Shown: positions 3,704-40,455 of the stretch, piece by piece
Layout: each line of letters begins with the position of its first letter
How positions within the stretch are numbered: position 1 is the stretch's first letter
Virus genome (UHGV): UHGV-0067929
DNA from: a virus
Reading direction: 5' to 3' (one strand)
Length of the DNA: 41,007 nt
Program-made: the position numbers and the translations under genes
Notes under the pieces: generated by a model
Seen by the model: only the letters and a program-made list of their open reading frames with translations
Database searches by the model: none
Told to the model about the DNA's origin: nothing

Positions 3704-4288
3704 TTATTGTTTGTTTTTTTCGTTCTGGTTGATGACAAATTCAATGTAACTTTCGATCTTTGCCTTCTCTGTTTCAGGTAACAATGCGTAGCGCGAGCGG
3801 TCATAGTTGATAGTTGCAGGGTCATGCGGATGGATCAGTAGTTCATATCCGTGACGCCCGAATGCAGATGCAACATTCTCCAGGGTGGAAATGGAAACGC
3901 TGACCTCATTGTTTAACAGGCGGCTTATTGTCACCTGGGCGACGCCGGATGCGCGGTGAAGTTTTCCCTGAGTTGAAAGGTCGCGGCTTTCACTCATCCA
4001 GCGTTCCAGGTTGTGAGCTGCCAGCTGACCAATGTCGCTTGGGCCGACAGGCTGAAAACCTTCCTGAGAAAGCGAGCGATCGATATCAAGCCAGTTACGG
4101 GGTTTATTGGCGGCAGCTTCAATTTTTCGCGCAACCTGGTCGCCGATAACCTTCTTGCCAAGAGCCCAGCGGTTTACCAGATTTGCCTGAGTTCCAAGTT
4201 TTTCTGCCATCCGCGTCTGAACACCATTGAATTCACGGTCGATCAAGTCGTTGAGATTTTGCCTGCGGACGTCCTGGATACTTTTCAT
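3704..4288 (-). CDS. CI-like prophage repressor with two HTH regions, no peptidase S24 domain
   Basis: 194 aa; HTH-like segments MAEKLGTQANLVNRW and SGVAQVTISRLLNNEVSVSISTLENVASAF; divergent from Cro-like gene with palindromic operators between. Confidence 0.65.
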   Translation of the reverse strand: MKSIQDVRRQNLNDLIDREFNGVQTRMAEKLGTQANLVNRWALGKKVIGDQVARKIEAAANKPRNWLDIDRSLSQEGFQPVGPSDIGQLAAHNLERWMSESRDLSTQGKLHRASGVAQVTISRLLNNEVSVSISTLENVASAFGRHGYELLIHPHDPATINYDRSRYALLPETEKAKIESYIEFVINQNEKNKQ

Positions 4289-12890: not shown

Positions 12891-12967
12891 TGGCGTGGCA
12901 TGCAGGATTCGAACCTGCGACCAACTGCTTAGAAGGCGGTTGCTCTGTCCAACTGAGCTAATGCCAC
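12891..12967 (-). tRNA. tRNA-Arg (anticodon UCU), phage-borne argU-like
   Basis: 77-nt cloverleaf read by hand: 7-bp acceptor stem GTGGCAT/ATGCCAC, D-arm TAGCTCAGTTGGACAGAGC, anticodon loop CTTCTAA, T-arm GCAGGTTCGAATCCTGC, CCA end; one C-A mismatch in anticodon stem. Confidence 0.8.
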
Positions 12968-29853: not shown

Positions 29854-30540
29854 TCAGAAGAACCCTGCTTTGTCGTTGATGTACTCCGCGTGCGTCTGGA
29901 TATCACGCAGGCATTTGTTCACACCGACGATGTAGCAGAACATGGTGGTCAACTCCGCCGCCGCGCCCGATACGTCGTGCCCGTCGTCCTGTAACTGGTT
30001 CAGCAGATTCATCAGCAGTGAGTTCTCCGTCAGGCCGAGAACACCAGACGGCGAGTGAATCAGGCTGCGGTAGCCGGGCTTCAGTGGGGCGCTGTAGGTT
30101 TTGTTCTCTATCTTCATTGCCTGCATCACTGCTGATGCTGTGGCGTTGGCTACTTGGTCGGCAACCATCTTTATGCGTTCTTCCTGCGGGAGCGAGTTTT
30201 TAATGTAACTTCCGGTGCGGCGGATCTGAGGAAGAACCTCACCTGTAACCCATTTACGAAAGCGGTATGGGATAGTGCCTGGTGTCACCGCATCGCGGCA
30301 GCGGAGGATCAGTGTGTAGAGGCCTGACTCGTTGATAATATTGGTTTCGCCTTGACGGCCTAAGTTAAATTTAGCCCTTTCATCATCATCAAGAGATTTT
30401 ATTGACATAGTGGGGTTTGTCAGTTGAAGAGCTTTAATAACGTCTTTGGCAACAAACCAAGGATTTCCATCAATAACAATGGCTCGAATGGTTGCTTCTG
30501 ATTCAAAATGAAAAACAGATGGGGTTACGTTAGCAGTCAT
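29854..30540 (-). CDS. Bro-N domain antirepressor-like protein, paralogue 1
   Basis: Start set to ATG 30540 by alignment with paralogues (MTANVTPSVFHFE...IRAIVIDGNPWFVAKDV Bro-N signature); constant C-terminal module shared with 31767-32459 and 33543-34238. Confidence 0.75.
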   Translation of the reverse strand: MTANVTPSVFHFESEATIRAIVIDGNPWFVAKDVIKALQLTNPTMSIKSLDDDERAKFNLGRQGETNIINESGLYTLILRCRDAVTPGTIPYRFRKWVTGEVLPQIRRTGSYIKNSLPQEERIKMVADQVANATASAVMQAMKIENKTYSAPLKPGYRSLIHSPSGVLGLTENSLLMNLLNQLQDDGHDVSGAAAELTTMFCYIVGVNKCLRDIQTHAEYINDKAGFF

Positions 30541-30770
30541 AGTGATCACCTTTGTAGTTAGGTTAATCACCACTACCGACGCCAATCGGTTGGTGGTGAA
30601 CTGTGCAGGGTTGGCGTAACCGGCTACAAAGGACCCGGCGCACCTTTCGGTGCCCCCACACAGCCCACCATAGAATAGGTGCGCTTTACACATAAAAAAA
30701 CCGCTTATGCGGCATATGTGCCTCTGTAGTAATCCGGGACGCCAATCCCGGCACTGGATTTTGCCAGTGC
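30541..30770 (-). ncRNA. structured leader RNA of Bro paralogue 1 (candidate c4-like regulatory RNA)
   Basis: Reverse-complement copy of the same leader; elements at 30721-30729 (mimic), 30624-30632 (anti-SD), 30549-30557 (SD). Confidence 0.45.
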
Positions 30771-31536: not shown

Positions 31537-31766
31537 GCACTGGCAAAATCCAGTGCCGGGATTGGCGTCCCGGATTACTACAGAGGCACATATGCCGCAT
31601 AAGCGGTTTTTTTATGTGTAAAGCGCACCTATTCTATGGTGGGCTGTGTGGGGGCACCGAAAGGTGCGCCGGGTCCTTTGTAGCCGGTAAGACCAACTCT
31701 GCACAGTTCACCACCATCTGATTGGTCTCAGCGGTGGTGATTAACCTAACTACAAAGGTGATCGCC
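31537..31766 (+). ncRNA. structured leader RNA of Bro paralogue 2 (candidate c4-like regulatory RNA)
   Basis: From predicted TSS: two GC hairpins (31536-31573), SD mimic CTACAGAGG (31578-31586), hairpin+U7 (31594-31613), GAAA-capped hairpin (31654-31667), anti-SD CCTTTGTAG in a loop (31675-31683), 8-bp hairpin (31708-31740), SD CTACAAAGG (31750-31758). Confidence 0.45.
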
Positions 31767-32459
31767 ATGAATACCAAACCTTCCATCTTTTCCTTTGAGT
31801 CATCCTGCCAGATCCGTATGTTCATGATTGACGGAGAACCTTGGTTTGTCACCAAAGATGTGTGCAATGCTTTGAATATTGATGTTACACAAGCGAGAAA
31901 ACTTGATAAAAAAGGCTGGAACAAAAAGGGGCTGTATTCAATACAGACCCCTGGTGGAATACAAGAACTATCCATAGTTTCAGAATCAGGTCTCTACATC
32001 CTTATTCTGCGTTGCAAAGAGGCAATGACTGAGGGAACGAGAGCATTCAGATTTCTTGAATGGGTTACAGGTGAGGTTCTTCCTCAGATCCGCCGCACCG
32101 GAAGTTACATTAAAAACTCGCTCCCGCAGGAAGAACGCATAAAGATGGTTGCCGACCAAGTAGCCAACGCCACAGCATCAGCAGTGATGCAGGCAATGAA
32201 GATAGAGAACAAAACCTACAGCGCCCCACTGAAGCCCGGCTACCGCAGCCTGATTCACTCGCCGTCTGGTGTTCTCGGCCTGACGGAGAACTCACTGCTG
32301 ATGAATCTGCTGAACCAGTTACAGGACGACGGGCACGACGTATCGGGCGCGGCGGCGGAGCTGACCACCATGTTCTGTTACATCGTCGGTGTGAGCAAGT
32401 GCCTGCGTGATATCCAGACCCACGCGGAGTACATCAACGACAAGGCAGGGTTCTTCTGA
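31767..32459 (+). CDS. Bro-N domain antirepressor-like protein, paralogue 2
   Basis: MNTKPSIFSFESSCQIRMFMIDGEPWFVTKDV Bro-N signature; SD CTACAAAGG 9 nt upstream; C-terminal ~145 aa near-identical to paralogues. Confidence 0.75.
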   Translation: MNTKPSIFSFESSCQIRMFMIDGEPWFVTKDVCNALNIDVTQARKLDKKGWNKKGLYSIQTPGGIQELSIVSESGLYILILRCKEAMTEGTRAFRFLEWVTGEVLPQIRRTGSYIKNSLPQEERIKMVADQVANATASAVMQAMKIENKTYSAPLKPGYRSLIHSPSGVLGLTENSLLMNLLNQLQDDGHDVSGAAAELTTMFCYIVGVSKCLRDIQTHAEYINDKAGFF

Positions 32460-32495
32460 CGGCGGCGGCACAGGGATGTGCCTTTAAATAATCCT
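32063..32495 (+). repeat. ~0.43-kb repeat R2 (3' half of Bro paralogue 2), inverted relative to R1/R3
   Basis: Reverse complement of 33543-33960 region with few mismatches. Confidence 0.8.
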
Positions 32496-32674: not shown

Positions 32675-33214
32675 GTGTTAAGTGAAGAAATGCAATTTGC
32701 CATGGCTGTGGCTCAAATCGTAAGTGCAGTCGCGGTTTCGCTTGGCTTGTTCATAGCTATCGCTACTATTATTTATAATGTAAATACAGCGAGAAAAGTA
32801 CACACTTCAGTATTCCTTGGTGAAAGCAGGTTTGATGTAGATTATAAGAAAGGCCTATCTACTATGCGCCGCATTCACGAGTCGAACAAATCATTCCGCT
32901 CTTATATGTATCCAAGCAATGGGCAGGCTGATCTTACGGATGAAGAAAAGATAGAGAAGAGAGAAATAATTTACTGTCTAGGTTTCTACGAACGCATGGC
33001 TGTGAGCGTGAAGCGGAAAACTTATGATGAGACCATGATTAAGGAAGTATTTTACAGCTCCGTTGTAAATAACTATCAGATTGCGCTACCTCTTATACAA
33101 GCTATTAGAGAAAAAGAAAACATAAACACATATTTTAAAGAATATGAATGGTTGGCCACACGATGGAAGGATTGTCCATTGAAGGATAAATCCCCGTGGT
33201 ACAAGTTTTGGTAA
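32675..33214 (+). CDS. membrane-anchored protein of unknown function (AT-rich moron)
   Basis: N-terminal hydrophobic helix (AMAVAQIVSAVAVSLGLFIAIATIIY) then ~140-aa soluble domain; markedly AT-rich coding region; followed by terminator. Confidence 0.6.
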   Translation: MLSEEMQFAMAVAQIVSAVAVSLGLFIAIATIIYNVNTARKVHTSVFLGESRFDVDYKKGLSTMRRIHESNKSFRSYMYPSNGQADLTDEEKIEKREIIYCLGFYERMAVSVKRKTYDETMIKEVFYSSVVNNYQIALPLIQAIREKENINTYFKEYEWLATRWKDCPLKDKSPWYKFW

Positions 33215-33236
33215 GCCCGCAGCGCGGGCTTTTTTG
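33215..33236 (+). terminator. intrinsic terminator after membrane protein gene
   Basis: GCCCGC..GCGGGC then TTTTTTG. Confidence 0.6.
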
Positions 33237-33307
33237 TGGATGAAACAAAAGTCAGTGCTACACTCATTGACGCCACATTGAGATGGCTTATAGATGGAAA
33301 TCTCACA

Positions 33308-33469
33308 ATGAAAAAAGCATTTGCTGCACTGTTCGTTTTGTTGTCTCTGGTGGCTTCAACTCAGGCCTCTGCTGGTCGTTGTCAGCACGACAGCGACACT
33401 GCTGCTGACGGCTCCCGCTGCGGCGGGCGTTCTGCGGATTCCCGCCCGGGTGGCGGTGGCATTCGTTAA
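33308..33469 (+). CDS. small secreted Cys-containing peptide (53-aa precursor)
   Basis: Canonical signal peptide MKKAFAALFVLLSLVASTQASA with AxA site; promoter-like TTGACG-N16-TATAGA upstream. Confidence 0.45.
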   Translation: MKKAFAALFVLLSLVASTQASAGRCQHDSDTAADGSRCGGRSADSRPGGGGIR

Positions 33470-33491
33470 AAACAAGGCCGCGAAAGCGGCC
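33468..33491 (-). terminator. terminator downstream of Bro paralogue 3
   Basis: GGCCGC-GAAA-GCGGCC followed on minus strand by TTGTTTTT. Confidence 0.5.
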
Positions 33492-34021
33492 TGTGACATG
33501 TCACGATAGTTCCGTTTTGCACATCCCTGTGCCGCCGTTCTGTCAGAAGAACCCTGCCTTGTCGTTGATGTACTCCGCGTGGGTCTGGATATCACGCAGG
33601 CACTTGCTCACACCGACGATGTAACAGAACATGGTGGTCAGCTCCGCCGCCGCGCCCGATACGTCGTGCCCGTCGTCCTGTAACTGGTTCAGCAGATTCA
33701 TCAGCAGTGAGTTCTCCGTCAGGCCGAGAACACCAGACGGCGAGTGAATCAGGCTGCGGTAGCCGGGCTTCAGTGGGGCGCTGTAGGTTTTGTTCTCTAT
33801 CTTCATTGCCTGCATCACTGCTGATGCTGTGGCGTTGGCTACTTGGTCGGCAACCATCTTTATGCGTTCTTCCTGCGGGAGCGAGTTTTTAATGTAACTT
33901 CCGGTGCGGCGGATCTGAGGAAGAACCTCACCTGTAACCCATTTACGAAAGCGGTAGGGGATAGTTCCTGGTGTCACAGCATCGCGGCAGCGGAGGATCA
34001 GTGTGTAGAGGCCTGACTCGG
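33492..34021 (-). repeat. ~0.5-kb repeat R3 (3' half and 3' UTR of Bro paralogue 3)
   Basis: Direct repeat of R1, 3.7 kb apart. Confidence 0.8.
33493..33504. repeat. 12-bp perfect palindrome GTGACATGTCAC (copy d)
   Basis: Other flank of the Bro island core, next to terminator hairpin. Confidence 0.6.
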
Positions 34022-34238
34022 AGATGATGATCGATTCTTGCTCACCGCCAGGGGTGTCGGTTGAAGCGACGCCCTTCTCATCATCATCAAGTTTTCGAAC
34101 AGCATCTCGATGGTTTGCTATGCCTATAGCCCGACAAACATCTGAAGCGATAAACCATGGCTCACCATTAATGACGATTACTCGTATATCGCCTTGGGAT
34201 TCGAAAGAAAAAATGGACGTGCTTTTTGTAGCTGTCAT
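33543..34238 (-). CDS. Bro-N domain antirepressor-like protein, paralogue 3
   Basis: MTATKSTSIFSFESQGDIRVIVINGEPWFIASDV; SD CTAAAAGG; constant C-terminal module. Confidence 0.75.
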   Translation of the reverse strand: MTATKSTSIFSFESQGDIRVIVINGEPWFIASDVCRAIGIANHRDAVRKLDDDEKGVASTDTPGGEQESIIISESGLYTLILRCRDAVTPGTIPYRFRKWVTGEVLPQIRRTGSYIKNSLPQEERIKMVADQVANATASAVMQAMKIENKTYSAPLKPGYRSLIHSPSGVLGLTENSLLMNLLNQLQDDGHDVSGAAAELTTMFCYIVGVSKCLRDIQTHAEYINDKAGFF

Positions 34239-34468
34239 AGTGGTTACCTTTTAGTCTGGTTAATCACCACTACCGACGCCAATCGGTTGGTGGTGAACTG
34301 TGCAGGGTTGGCGTAACCGGCTAAAAGGACCCGGCGCACCTTTCGGTGCCCCCACACAGCCCACCATAATACGAATGTGGCCGTGCTATACGCATAAAAA
34401 AACCGCTTGCGCGGTGAATGCGCCTTTTAGTAATCCGGGACGCCAATCCCGGCACTGGATTTTGCCAG
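34239..34468 (-). ncRNA. structured leader RNA of Bro paralogue 3 (candidate c4-like regulatory RNA, variant specificity)
   Basis: Same architecture; elements at 34423-34430 (mimic CTAAAAGG), 34321-34328 (anti-SD CCTTTTAG), 34247-34254 (SD CTAAAAGG), all changed in concert. Confidence 0.45.
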
Positions 34469-34506
34469 TGCCTGATTACTATGGCACAAGAGGAGTGCGA
34501 TGTAAA

Positions 34507-35007: not shown

Positions 35008-37023
35008 ATGACGGTCTCAACCGAAGTTGACCACAACGAATACACAGGTAACGGCGTTACGACATCATTTCCGTACACCTTCCGTATTTTCAAAAAATCC
35101 GACCTGGTTGTTCAGGTGTCTGACCTGAACGGGAACGTAACAGAATTGGTTCTGGATACCGGTTATACGGTAACTGGGGCGGGCACTTATAGTGGCGGTT
35201 CTGTTGTTCTTCCGTCGCCGCTTGCTGCTGGATGGCGAATTACGATAGATCGTGTGCTTGATGTAGTGCAGGAGACAGACCTTCGCAATCAGGGAAAGTT
35301 TTTCCCCGAAGTGCATGAAGATGCCTTTGACTACCTGACGATGCTGATCCAGCAATGTTTTGGGTGGTTCAGACGTGCATTGATGAAACCATCTTTGCTT
35401 GCAAAATATTACGATGCAAAGCAAAACAGAATTTCTAACCTTGCAGATCCATCACTTGAGCAGGACGCTGTAAATAATCGCTCAATGCGTAATTATGTCG
35501 ATGCTGCAATCGCCGGAGTTGTTGGTGGTTTTGGTTGGTTTATTCAGTATGGTTCAGGCGCGGTATATAGAACGTTTCAGGATAAGATGCGGGATACTGT
35601 CAGTGTTCTTGACTTTGGCGCTAAAGGTGATGGAGTCACAAATGATACAGATGCTTTCATTGCCGCGGCATCTGCTTCGCCACAAGGTGTTTATGTTCCT
35701 GATGGCACGTATTTATTGCCGGAAGATATTAATGGAAGATTTTATGGCCCAGGAAAAATAATTAAAGAGACAGGAGCGGAACGAATTCCGTTTACCAATG
35801 TAGCTCAGTCTCATAGCAACCTTATTTTAGGTTATGATGCCGCAAAAAATTACACTGACTCTGGTAAAGGTAATCAATTGGTTTTGCTTGGACCAAGTTC
35901 TGGTCGCAACATAACTAGCGGCACTAACACAATCGTGGTTGGTGTGGGTGGTTTGTCAGGAGATACTCTAGAAGATGATCTTACAGATAAGTCGCCATTT
36001 TCTGGAACAGAGATTATCAGTATAGGTATTAATGCTTTGAAGAAAGCCACCACTGGAAATAACATGATTGGTATTGGCAGGGATGCGCTAAACGAGTGTA
36101 AGGATGGTAGGTTCAATGTTGCAGTTGGTATGTCAGCTTTGCAGCAACTCCATTCTGGAGAAGCTAATGTTGCAATAGGACGCTCTGCAGGAATGCGTAC
36201 TGGCATCTACACAGACCCTCAAGGTGTACGTCTTGGGTATAATAAATGTAATGGAAATACCCTTATTGGTAATGCAGCTGGTAGGGAGTTAAAGCAAGGT
36301 GATCATAACACAGCTATAGGTAATGGAGCATTGCGAGGAGTATCATCAACAGAGAACCCATACACTGGGACTCTCACAGGTAATTTTAATACAGCAATTG
36401 GTGTTGATGCTCTCAATTCCCTATCCTCAGGTGACCTGAATGTTATGATAGGAGCAAGAGCAGGAAGAAAATTACCAACTGGAAATGGTAATATTTTTAT
36501 AGGTCCAGATGCTGGTGCCGGAATATCAGAAGATACCTCCAATAAATTCATTGTAAATAATCACAAAGGATTGCCTTTTTTAGAAGGTGTTATGGGAGGC
36601 GCACAAGCGGAAGATAACTATTTGCGTATAGATGGTAGTGTTGCCCCCCAGATAGATAATCAAAGAACTTGTGGTCAATCTAGTCGTAGATGGCAAACTG
36701 TCTTTGCAACTAATGGTGTAATACAAACATCTGACGGTAGATGTAAAGATGTGTATGAGATATCTACGGCAGAGTATAGTGCAGGGCTAGAATTAGCCAT
36801 TAGCATGATAAAGTTTAAATGGACAGATGCAGAATCTGATAAGTATCACTTCGGATGTATGGCTCAAGAAGTAATGCTGATTATGGAGAAATATAATCTT
36901 AACCCTACAGACTATTCTCTGGTTACTTATGATAAAGAATCGGATATGTATGGTGTAAATTACGCTGACTTATCTTGTTTCTGTATTGCCGCTATGTCTA
37001 AACATTTATTACGAAGTGCGTAA
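35008..37023 (+). CDS. tailspike protein (conserved N-terminal particle-binding domain, beta-helix, C-terminal peptidase S74 intramolecular chaperone)
   Basis: DFGAKGDGVTNDTDAF pectate-lyase-like motif; C-terminal SDGRCKDV...FKW...HFGCMAQEV...VNYADL chaperone-domain pattern. Confidence 0.85.
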   Translation: MTVSTEVDHNEYTGNGVTTSFPYTFRIFKKSDLVVQVSDLNGNVTELVLDTGYTVTGAGTYSGGSVVLPSPLAAGWRITIDRVLDVVQETDLRNQGKFFPEVHEDAFDYLTMLIQQCFGWFRRALMKPSLLAKYYDAKQNRISNLADPSLEQDAVNNRSMRNYVDAAIAGVVGGFGWFIQYGSGAVYRTFQDKMRDTVSVLDFGAKGDGVTNDTDAFIAAASASPQGVYVPDGTYLLPEDINGRFYGPGKIIKETGAERIPFTNVAQSHSNLILGYDAAKNYTDSGKGNQLVLLGPSSGRNITSGTNTIVVGVGGLSGDTLEDDLTDKSPFSGTEIISIGINALKKATTGNNMIGIGRDALNECKDGRFNVAVGMSALQQLHSGEANVAIGRSAGMRTGIYTDPQGVRLGYNKCNGNTLIGNAAGRELKQGDHNTAIGNGALRGVSSTENPYTGTLTGNFNTAIGVDALNSLSSGDLNVMIGARAGRKLPTGNGNIFIGPDAGAGISEDTSNKFIVNNHKGLPFLEGVMGGAQAEDNYLRIDGSVAPQIDNQRTCGQSSRRWQTVFATNGVIQTSDGRCKDVYEISTAEYSAGLELAISMIKFKWTDAESDKYHFGCMAQEVMLIMEKYNLNPTDYSLVTYDKESDMYGVNYADLSCFCIAAMSKHLLRSA

Positions 37024-39378: not shown

Positions 39379-39921
39379 TTAATTAAACCAACTGTCTGAT
39401 TTATTTTCTTCTGCTTTACCCACGCTTTTCATCAAATCACGACCACCTTCAGTCATATTCCTGTTAGCGTCAGCTTCAGATTGTACAACATCGGTTTGCG
39501 CTGCTTTGTGTTTCAGTTCCTGATCGATAAATTCGTTCTCACGCTTAACGCGCGCTTCTTCTTTTGCCAGCGCCAGTTTTTGCTTCTGAATCTCTAAGTT
39601 GCGTAGCTCATCTTCATAACTTTGATCGCGCTTTTTATCCGCAGTGAATTCGGCGTCCCGTTTATCCTGGCGAGCTTTTTTATCCGCTGCTGCTGCTGCC
39701 GCTCTTTTATTCGCTGCGGCCTGAGCGTTTGCGCGCCGTTGCTTCTCTTGCTGGATTTCCCTGTTGCGCTCCGCAACCCATTCGTCATGCTGCCTTTGTT
39801 CTTCATTTTTGCCTTGCTGTTCAGCTTCTGCGACCGCAGAGAGTTGATCCTGTAATGAAGAGGCGAAAGCCGGGCTACTAACAGCAGCTAATATGGCGGC
39901 GCAAAGAAAAACTTTCTTCAT
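39379..39921 (-). CDS. secreted Ala/Lys/Glu-rich coiled-coil protein (host-like)
   Basis: Signal peptide MKKVFLCAAILAAVSSPAFA; lies outside the lysis cassette beyond a bidirectional terminator. Confidence 0.55.
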   Translation of the reverse strand: MKKVFLCAAILAAVSSPAFASSLQDQLSAVAEAEQQGKNEEQRQHDEWVAERNREIQQEKQRRANAQAAANKRAAAAAADKKARQDKRDAEFTADKKRDQSYEDELRNLEIQKQKLALAKEEARVKRENEFIDQELKHKAAQTDVVQSEADANRNMTEGGRDLMKSVGKAEENKSDSWFN

Positions 39922-39936
39922 GAGTCCTCCTGATAG

Positions 39937-40455
39937 TTAGCTCTTTTCAGGACATTTTGTATTTGGCTGAATACGCGTTTCGTTATAAGTGGTGGTAATA
40001 ACAACGGCTAAACCCGTTGTGAACTGGCATTCTTTACCCACCTGGGTGGAGGTGTACACTTTGGTGCCTTCCTTATAAGTTAAAGAGACACCTTCCACTA
40101 AGGTTTTATCATTCACCATAGTACCCGCTGCCGCGCCTACAGCTCCGCCACCAACTGCACCAGCCGTTGTTCCGGAGTTACTACCAGATCCAACGTTATG
40201 GCCGATAACGCCGCCTGCGACAGCGCCAATAAGTGCGCCAAAGGCTTGCGCATTCCGTTTATTTTGTGAGTTATCTACGGCAACTTTTGCGGGAAGAATG
40301 GAGATAATATTAACGGTTTTAGTTTCTTGCTTTGTATTCAGTTGATCGGTTTGATAGACATCGGCGGCATGGTCGTCAGCATTTGACTGGCATCCTGCCA
40401 GGGTGAATGACGCTAAAATTGCCACAGGCAGAAAACATTTTTTAAATTTCATCAC
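39937..40455 (-). CDS. glycine-zipper lipoprotein (YcfJ/Umo-like, host-like)
   Basis: Lipobox LAGC; GALIGAVAGGVIGHNVGSG glycine-zipper core resembling E. coli YcfJ as recalled. Confidence 0.65.
   Translation of the reverse strand: MMKFKKCFLPVAILASFTLAGCQSNADDHAADVYQTDQLNTKQETKTVNIISILPAKVAVDNSQNKRNAQAFGALIGAVAGGVIGHNVGSGSNSGTTAGAVGGGAVGAAAGTMVNDKTLVEGVSLTYKEGTKVYTSTQVGKECQFTTGLAVVITTTYNETRIQPNTKCPEKS

Follow-up and report, generated by a model that had tools for sequence, protein, structure and literature searches.

The stretch analyzed here (the window) comprises 41,007 nt of UHGV virus genome UHGV-0067929, and all coordinates are positions within it. The window is an epsilon15/phiV10/TL-2011b-like Escherichia coli prophage, and our subject is a small gene located between its ejection-protein genes and its tailspike gene. 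As listed in Table 1, the gene is an ATG-initiated open reading frame (ORF) for a peptide of 53 residues. Its upstream neighbor is a DUF4760 gene with its own terminator, and a Bro-N antirepressor gene is convergent with it from the other side; the same placement, with an accessory gene on one side and a convergent antirepressor gene on the other, was found for the TL-2011b and RefSeq copies. The DNA from 33150 to 33560 gave a 95% match to phage TL-2011b and matched 537 of 5426 complete E. coli genomes (about 10%). The gene is already annotated. RefSeq carries it as a "(putative) transmembrane anchored protein" (TL-2011b gp43, YP_007001994.1; WP_114107238.1), and phrog_14503 ("membrane associated protein"), whose category is "moron, auxiliary metabolic gene and host takeover," matched it at full length (E value of 1e-38, residues 1 to 53 against profile positions 1 to 53). 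These entries represent the same gene, with 96 to 98% identity across all 53 residues, but their names imply a membrane anchor whereas the sequence here argues for a cleaved signal peptide. In the papers searched, neither the core motif of the peptide nor the protein name in a phage context was mentioned.

We compared the ORF across 192 enterobacterial phage and prophage loci gathered from GTDB genomes and IMG/VR, which yielded 108 distinct coding sequences (CDS). An earlier note on this DNA had put forward conservation in related prophages as a check of the ORF, and this was borne out: the ORF was intact in 192/192 loci, with no frameshifted or stop-bearing copy, and the sense frame was open in 108/108 distinct CDS. 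In the mature core, the mean pairwise synonymous difference (pS) was 0.58 and the nonsynonymous difference (pN) was 0.051, for a pN/pS of 0.087; for the first 20 codons, within the signal peptide, the values were 0.45, 0.116, and 0.256, respectively. Residues C25 to G49 were near-invariant, in contrast to the drifting signal peptide, in E. coli, Shigella, Klebsiella, Citrobacter, Cronobacter, Franconibacter, Salmonella, Pectobacterium, and Dickeya. In the 80 loci closest to the window, 35 CDS variants encoded two proteins that differed at residue 21, with Phe in 78 of these nearest IMG/VR loci and Ser in 2. The window has Ser (33368 to 33370; QASA versus QAFA) and carries the rarer cassette allele (Ser21; G to A at 33283). 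Among distant homologues, invariant Ser (TCN/AGY) and Arg (CGN/AGR) residues switched codon family. By this comparison, the ORF is a genuine protein-coding gene under strong purifying selection, because synonymous sites are near saturation while the peptide is almost invariant.

Table 1. Features of the peptide locus and of the surrounding prophage (positions in the window)
Feature	Position	Strand	Details
Peptide ORF	33308-33469	+	ATG start; 162-nt CDS, 53 aa; stop 33467-33469; encodes MKKAFAALFVLLSLVASTQASAGRCQHDSDTAADGSRCGGRSADSRPGGGGIR
Signal peptide, coding part	33308-33373	+	Residues 1-22, MKKAFAALFVLLSLVASTQASA; predicted cleavage ASA|G
Mature peptide, coding part	33374-33469	+	31 aa, GRCQHDSDTAADGSRCGGRSADSRPGGGGIR; includes stop 33467-33469
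Cysteine codons	33380-33382, 33419-33421	+	Cys25 and Cys38; 12 residues between
Intrinsic terminator of DUF4760 gene	33213-33236	+	Stem-loop 33213-33231, then T-run; 8-bp stem, 6 GC pairs, TTTTGTGG tail; 5' boundary of cassette
Favored candidate promoter	33237-33264	+	-35-like TGGATG 33237-33242, 16-nt spacer, TG 33256-33257, -10 TACACT 33259-33264
Promoter-like element of earlier note	33267-33294	+	TTGACG 33267-33272, 16 nt, TATAGA 33289-33294
Conserved leader hairpin	33272-33287	+	5 bp; GCCAC-N6-GUGGC in most relatives; here GCCAC AUUGAG AUGGC
Shine-Dalgarno-like GGAA	33296-33299	+	8 nt before ATG
GC-rich hairpin GGCCGC-GAAA-GCGGCC	33475-33492	both	Common to peptide gene and convergent antirepressor gene
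Perfect 12-bp palindrome	33493-33504		GTGACATGTCAC; after terminator hairpin; 3' edge of cassette
DUF4760 gene	32675-33214
Bro-N antirepressor genes	29854-30693, 31722-32459, 33543-34238	-, +, -	isrK + C4 module directly upstream of each; third is convergent with peptide gene
isrK small RNA + C4 antisense RNA modules	30589-30770, 31537-31718, 34286-34471	-, +, -	All above Rfam gathering scores
Inverted repeat, 535 nt	31926-32460 / 33542-34076		90% complementary
Perfect 19-nt repeat	32463-32481 / 33519-33537		Prolongs the 535-nt repeat
Tailspike gene	35008-37023
tRNA gene	12894-12967	-
DUF5384 protein gene + glycine-zipper/TraT-like lipoprotein gene	39379-40455	-	Near right end

Two promoter candidates lie upstream of the gene, and neither passed a consensus scan. 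One is the pair TTGACG-N16-TATAGA, on which the earlier note had based its description of the gene as independently promoted. The hexamers and their 16-nt gap are present as described, but a promoter role for them was not supported. The scan rejected TATAGA, which has no T at hexamer position 6. TTGACG occurred in most of 80 E. coli-type loci, with TTAACG and TTGATG variants inside this lineage, and was absent in Klebsiella, Enterobacter, Pectobacterium, Rahnella, and other non-E. coli lineages. TATAGA aligned with a conserved CTACACA box rather than with a -10 element; the box, whose E. coli-lineage version is the diverged CTTATAGA, follows a leader hairpin and is itself followed by a GGA-type ribosome-binding element. 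A reading of this CUACACA..GGA arrangement as a CsrA site was a poor fit by eye. Except for its first base, the conserved hairpin lies entirely within the 16-nt spacer; its stem differs by lineage (GCCAC/GUGGC, GCCGUC/GAUGGC, CCGC/GCGG, CUGC/GCAG, and GCUAUCA/UGAUAGC). In the comparison of this hairpin, 89% of cells were paired, 5/5 pairs had changed on both sides, and 14 cells were compensatory; 0/500 shuffles were as good, and registers slid along the sequence gave 24 to 59% pairing. The hairpin of the majority allele was present in its minimum-energy fold (z score of -2.2).

The other candidate, which the consensus scan did not call, is favored by comparison. Among 24 lineage representatives, its TAnnnT, at a position 5 to 8 nt upstream of the hairpin, never varied at the initial T and A and kept the last T in at least 90%, and the -35-like TGGATG of the window is TGGACG in most relatives. 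A conserved TAnnnT upstream of a covarying hairpin probably fits the locus better than the promoter of the earlier note. Transcription would start at ∼33270 to 33272 from an extended -10 (TGcTACACT, with C at -13 and TG at -15/-14), and the mRNA would begin with a short stem-loop of the E. coli mRNA-stabilizing kind. Stem-loops at the 5' terminus, as in ompA-type leaders, are known to shield E. coli mRNAs against 5'-end-dependent decay, and the leader hairpin is probably the 5'-terminal stem-loop of this mRNA. Independent promotion itself still probably holds, because a terminator directly precedes the cassette and the conserved TAnnnT (here TACACT) lies in its ∼70-nt leader. A GGA/GGU/AGG element was found 5 to 9 nt upstream of the ATG in all lineages. 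Some lineages have other leaders; that of the L184 type lies behind another ORF, and a small plasmid has TATAGT.

We consider it unlikely that TTGACG-N16-TATAGA is a real promoter of the E. coli lineage, with a start at ∼33301 and a nearly leaderless mRNA. The pair does agree with 9 of 12 consensus positions, with a good -35 and acceptable spacing, and TTGACG is retained in most of the E. coli-type loci. Set against this are the -10 without T at position 6, the TTAACG and TTGATG variants inside the lineage, the absence of TTGACG elsewhere, the alignment of the -10 with the CTACACA box, and the presence of a covarying hairpin in the spacer. A start ∼7 nt past TATAGA would moreover give a ∼6-nt leader without the conserved GGA element.

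Conservation among the 80 E. coli-type loci runs from the upstream terminator to the palindrome, beyond which most flanks differ. The upstream hairpin, with loop and stem variants, was present in nearly all of these loci behind differing upstream genes; 8/80 had a different T-rich sequence in its place. At the other end, the GC-rich hairpin has a folding energy of -17.9 kcal/mol (z score of -4.9 on the plus strand and -3.9 on the minus strand). Only on the minus strand does it form a canonical terminator, with the tail TTGTTTTTA, which serves the antirepressor gene; on the plus strand it is without a U-tract in this lineage, and relatives from other genera have T-runs on both sides. The palindrome is retained in loci of E. 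coli, Klebsiella (L006), and Buttiauxella (L011), and the flanks mostly diverge at it or right after it. It might serve as a site of recombination or of protein binding. As a CRP site it was a poor fit by eye.

The distribution of the gene is that of cargo with changing surroundings. Phage phiV10 and several relatives match the terminator only and not the gene, which was found in 12/50,697 phage records. The Klebsiella copy sits in the same slot of an epsilon15-like prophage, the Pectobacterium copy lies in a different prophage beside tail genes, and in an alphaproteobacterial chromosome the gene stands alone between bacA and ffh. The gene also occurs on plasmids. On the mobilizable Klebsiella plasmid L235 (NZ_CP138754.1, 3360 bp), a 70% identical copy at 2104 to 2265 is the sole annotated gene besides MobC and MbeD, and its leader differs, with a TATAGT -10-like element and a GGGG ribosome-binding site. 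Among the 86 neighbor proteins of 22 non-enteric loci, we found no conserved partner gene; three Pfam families recurred, each in 2 proteins, and the two resolvase families among them were parts of one protein type. Frequent neighbors at these loci were mobile-element genes (resolvase, integrase, terminase, primase-polymerase, and IS21 helper), with occasional cell-wall-lipid genes (bacA, murJ, and a PAP2-like family).

With respect to the features of a moron, the gene is absent from related phages and has varying neighbors, with flanks that differ on both sides among the 80 loci. It also has terminators of its own, upstream at 33213 to 33231 and downstream as the hairpin that here is without a plus-strand U-tract. 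Positions 33213 to 33504 would thus constitute a self-contained, "moron"-type accessory cassette within the antirepressor (immI-like) region, and expression of the gene from the prophage would not depend on the antirepressor genes on either side.

The frame of the ORF extends back to a GTG at 33236, giving a 77-residue form that corresponds to phrog_3117. The earlier note had described the listed ORF (33236 to 33469) as a longer, GTG-initiated extension, and the comparison agrees. Conservation begins at the MKK of the ATG start in every lineage, and the sequence ahead of MKK was unrelated or absent in the other lineages examined. The Klebsiella locus L006 from GTDB has an in-frame stop just two codons ahead of the ATG, and the GTG directly follows the T-run of the upstream terminator. 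As judged from this pattern, the 77-residue version is an over-extension.

We assessed the N-terminus with rules for signal peptides, namely, a charged n-region, a 10- to 15-residue h-region, and small residues at positions -3 and -1. It has an MKK n-region, then the h-region AFAALFVLLSLVA, then STQASA|G, as is characteristic of substrates of Sec and signal peptidase I. In 57 distinct short precursors, position -3 was A/S/V in 51, position -1 was A/S/G in 50, and position +1 was G in 48; the first six residues held on average 1.6 K/R, and the mean maximum 10-residue hydropathy was 2.76. The sequence of the signal peptide varies among lineages while its n/h/c architecture and AxA|G site are retained. 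By these features the precursor has a signal peptide of the Sec type, with AxA|G as its signal peptidase I site, and the description in the earlier note, of an ORF with a Sec signal peptide and a ∼31-residue Gly/Arg/Asp-rich mature part with two cysteines, was upheld. Sec would export the precursor, cleavage would follow Ala22, and DsbA would join Cys25 and Cys38 in the periplasm to give a 14-residue disulfide loop. The product would be a soluble periplasmic peptide of ∼3.06 kDa, with a predicted monoisotopic mass of 3056.34 Da for the mature form with one disulfide and 3058.36 Da for the reduced form. A bacterial lipoprotein processed by signal peptidase II was also considered and rejected. 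No lipobox is present, the Cys lies 3 residues past the AxA site, and the stretch reads ASA-GR-C here and AFA-GN-C in relatives, with an R or N at -1 that is incompatible with a lipobox. Lipoboxes occur only in some distant long forms, far upstream of the module.

It is quite unlikely that the hydrophobic segment is instead an uncleaved signal anchor, possibly of the 77-residue GTG form, which would make the product a bitopic inner-membrane protein with a 31-residue periplasmic tail. The database name, "transmembrane anchored protein," says just this if taken literally, phrog_3117 models the 77-residue version, and in some distant relatives the module seems to be membrane tethered, either by a hydrophobic stretch that follows it or by a preceding lipobox. 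However, the AxA|G site is kept while the remaining hydrophobic segment drifts, which is typical of cleaved signals, and the 24-residue extension that starts just past the terminator T-run is not conserved. In the long forms, furthermore, an N-terminal signal peptide is accompanied by a separate predicted transmembrane stretch after the module.

The 25-residue core of the mature peptide, C-x12-C-G-G-R-x4-R-P-G-G, was found across phyla with differing codons, in alphaproteobacteria, gammaproteobacteria, and cyanobacteria. A pattern-based scan, with each GTDB species represented by one genome, detected it in 48 species; the matches include Rhizobium, Agrobacterium, Mesorhizobium, Methylobacterium, Devosia, and Microvirga and also Nostoc, Anabaena, Dolichospermum, Paraburkholderia, and a Polyangiaceae metagenome-assembled genome. 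A profile search returned 866 clusters at 90% identity, an exhaustive HMMER search returned 609 clusters at 50% identity (E ≤ 1e-3), one of them a false positive, and the core motif was present on 311 IMG/VR contigs. The false positive (P0157, with 11 stretches) is a eukaryotic chitin-binding CBM14 repeat protein. The typical member is a precursor of 46 to 55 residues composed of a signal peptide, A-x-A|G-N-C, [x5][D/Q]x-A-x-DGSRCGGR[AS][AS]xxRPGG, and one to a few further residues. On this evidence, the core is a very wide family without functional annotation.

On inspection of the sequences, the module occurs either on its own or on the extracytoplasmic side of larger envelope proteins. Seven proteins from marine metagenomes (P0160, P0167, P0173, P0186, P0191, P0197, and P0200) read as a signal peptide, the Cys-loop module, RNPDTDW, a predicted transmembrane stretch, and a conserved uncharacterized C-terminal domain of ∼150 residues with the motif EMGGNNxDAAARY and no Pfam match. 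In Mesorhizobium and cyanobacteria, the module lies at the extreme C terminus of a lipoprotein or secreted protein; other architectures include tandem modules and, in a single fusion (P0277), a module placed after a staphylococcal-nuclease domain. We read the long relatives as placing the module extracytoplasmically at the inner membrane. In Mesorhizobium sp. M2E.F.Ca.ET.219.01.1.1 (L028, ∼4001 to 4132), in-frame stops closely precede the module in a copy of the long lipoprotein form, and this copy is the only apparent remnant or pseudogene of the whole set.

Taken together, these data are best explained, with good probability, by an autonomous prophage cassette for an exported periplasmic accessory peptide. 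The earlier note had suggested a small secreted or periplasmic effector. The small gene and its Sec-type signal are supported by sequence features, but "effector" was only a guess. We tentatively propose, as a possibility clearly on the doubtful side, that the peptide acts on its own, by attaching to a conserved component or enzyme of the envelope, and that the lysogen gains an envelope-level benefit, for example, superinfection exclusion. This proposal is made because the core hardly varies across diderm phyla, is found attached to envelope proteins, and sits in an accessory slot beside the immunity region. A bolder version is more doubtful still: the core would be an ancient, unrecognized extracytoplasmic mini-domain, captured by phages and small plasmids of Enterobacterales as a periplasmic effector, and lysogens would be protected in a Spackle-like manner by a host-derived 3-kDa module. 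Its target would be, for example, a peptidoglycan-cleaving enzyme or a lipid-linked cell-wall precursor, for which the occasional bacA, murJ, and PAP2-like neighbors and the resemblance to the exclusion-gene slot of P22 are weak hints only.

Several points weigh against the cassette model and the role proposed for its product. The G-to-A change at 33283 in the window removes one pair of the leader hairpin, and the hairpin is not in the minimum-energy fold of this allele. The -35 of the favored promoter is poor (3/6 positions here and 4/6 in most relatives), and the Shine-Dalgarno element, GGAA, is weak. Residue conservation in distant homologues is partly ascertained, since a sequence had to contain A[AS]DGSRCG(G) or GR..RPGG to match the search patterns. 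An AlphaFold model built from a 42-sequence alignment had moderate confidence (predicted local distance difference test score of 74) and almost no regular secondary structure, with a signal helix followed by an irregular loop that was mostly coil. No fold or sequence relative of known function was found: Pfam and NCBIfam gave nothing meaningful for the peptide or its long-form relatives, Pfam had no match at E ≤ 10 for 26 diverse isolated modules, no PADLOC-DB 2.0 model matched the peptide, the DUF4760 protein, or neighboring proteins, and a profile search of the PDB gave no match at E ≤ 10. A Foldseek comparison of the model with the PDB also gave no match, but a fold comparison is uninformative for a model that is mostly coil. 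Finally, the envelope-binding or exclusion role is speculative, being drawn only from location, topology, and analogy.

A further alternative is that the peptide is a secreted signal or weapon, either a communication peptide of the arbitrium kind or the precursor of a Sec-dependent bacteriocin or modified peptide. The small size, signal peptide, and conserved C-terminal part are consistent with this, as are the placement between antirepressor modules that control the lysis-lysogeny decision and the carriage on phages, plasmids, and other mobile elements. We nevertheless regard it as highly improbable. The 22 non-enteric loci and the phage and plasmid loci inspected have no conserved adjacent receptor, immunity, transporter, or modification gene, and fusion of the module to larger envelope proteins and a nuclease suits a folded binding module better. 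The 25 residues are also near-invariant across phyla, unlike signals or toxins that diversify in specificity, and no evidence of a signaling, bacteriocin, or lipoprotein role was found.

The earlier note had offered as its alternative that the feature is an artefact of a structured, GC-rich 3' region. Such a reading, under which no protein exists and the frame is open only as a side effect of a structured, GC-rich element of RNA or DNA where the convergent antirepressor gene ends, is effectively refuted by the comparative data: although the mature part is 70% G+C (versus 49% for the window), a strong hairpin and the palindrome lie downstream of the ORF, and antisense frame -2 is open in 72/108 variants, this last because the sense frame is GC-rich, the other five frames otherwise have stops in most variants while the sense frame is always open, pN/pS is low with synonymous change near saturation, invariant residues switch codon family, the GC-rich coding region folds no better than shuffles (z scores of -1.8 and -1.3), an Rfam scan of the cassette gave chance-level matches only, and the same peptide is found in chromosomes with no antirepressor gene nearby.

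In related prophages, other genes stand in the DUF4760 slot, e.g., a YafO-family toxin gene in TL-2011b, and we view this slot as a collector of interchangeable accessory genes for that reason. Two convergent antirepressor genes form, with their 3' halves, the 535-nt inverted repeat, which, prolonged by the 19-nt repeat, brackets a ∼1.04-kb segment with the DUF4760 gene and the peptide gene; homologous recombination between its arms could invert this segment. Each of the three antirepressor genes has its own isrK and C4 module (Table 1), and such a triple P1-type c4/ant immunity arrangement within a single podovirus-like prophage is unusual. We also note a tRNA gene within the prophage and, near its right end, the genes for a DUF5384 protein and a glycine-zipper/TraT-like lipoprotein, which are further candidate envelope-acting cargo.

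As far as the searched libraries reach, the gene is present in databases by name only and is not a member of any characterized family tested (Spackle, Excalibur, defense proteins, and lipoprotein exclusion factors). What is new here is the comparative proof of coding, the correct start codon, and a revised model of the promoter and leader, together with the recognition of the core as a wide mini-domain, absent from the searched Pfam, NCBIfam, and PADLOC libraries, that is carried as phage and plasmid cargo. Small exported proteins are the least understood cargo of prophages, and this one is common, extremely conserved, genetically autonomous, and small enough for chemical synthesis. Were its function defined, hundreds of protein clusters in proteobacteria and cyanobacteria would gain an annotation, and the result could reveal a new route by which mobile elements alter the cell envelope. 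The finding would gain weight if the peptide turned out to be an exclusion factor of a new, envelope-acting kind.

Like AimP-type arbitrium peptides of phage communication, the peptide is made as a short precursor with a signal peptide in a temperate phage, near genes for lysis-lysogeny control. It differs from them in that no receptor gene is adjacent, in that its conserved part has 25 residues with a putative disulfide versus the 6-residue variable tail of AimP, and in that its homologues are chromosomal or fused to larger proteins. With the extracellular calcium-binding domain Excalibur (PF05901) and DxDxDG calcium loops it shares a short loop that lies outside the cytoplasm between two Cys residues, contains Asp, and has a DG-x-x-C signature. 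Excalibur architectures include a domain after a staphylococcal nuclease, which P0277 resembles. The Cys spacing is about 30 in Excalibur versus 12 in the peptide core, however, and outside Enterobacterales only one Asp besides that of DG is conserved in the module. Neither the full proteins nor the 26 modules matched its Pfam profile at E ≤ 10, and the peptide is not a member of Excalibur.

P22 SieA, T4 Spackle, T5 Llp, phi80 Cor, and lambda Bor are small envelope proteins encoded at accessory slots of temperate or lytic phages, and the peptide has in common with them a small Sec-targeted product, an autonomous cassette, and an accessory slot. It has no sequence or profile similarity to any of them; for T4 Spackle (PF25676), the only match was a marginal one at an E value of 0.065 over residues 1 to 21, the signal peptide, of a distant relative, and the window peptide had none. 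Llp, Cor, and Bor are lipoproteins, which the peptide is not, and all five are phage specific, whereas the module of the peptide is widespread in bacterial chromosomes of several phyla. The likeness to P22 extends to location. In P22, sieA adjoins the immI region, as the peptide cassette does here, and such a location would suit a role in exclusion or surface modification.

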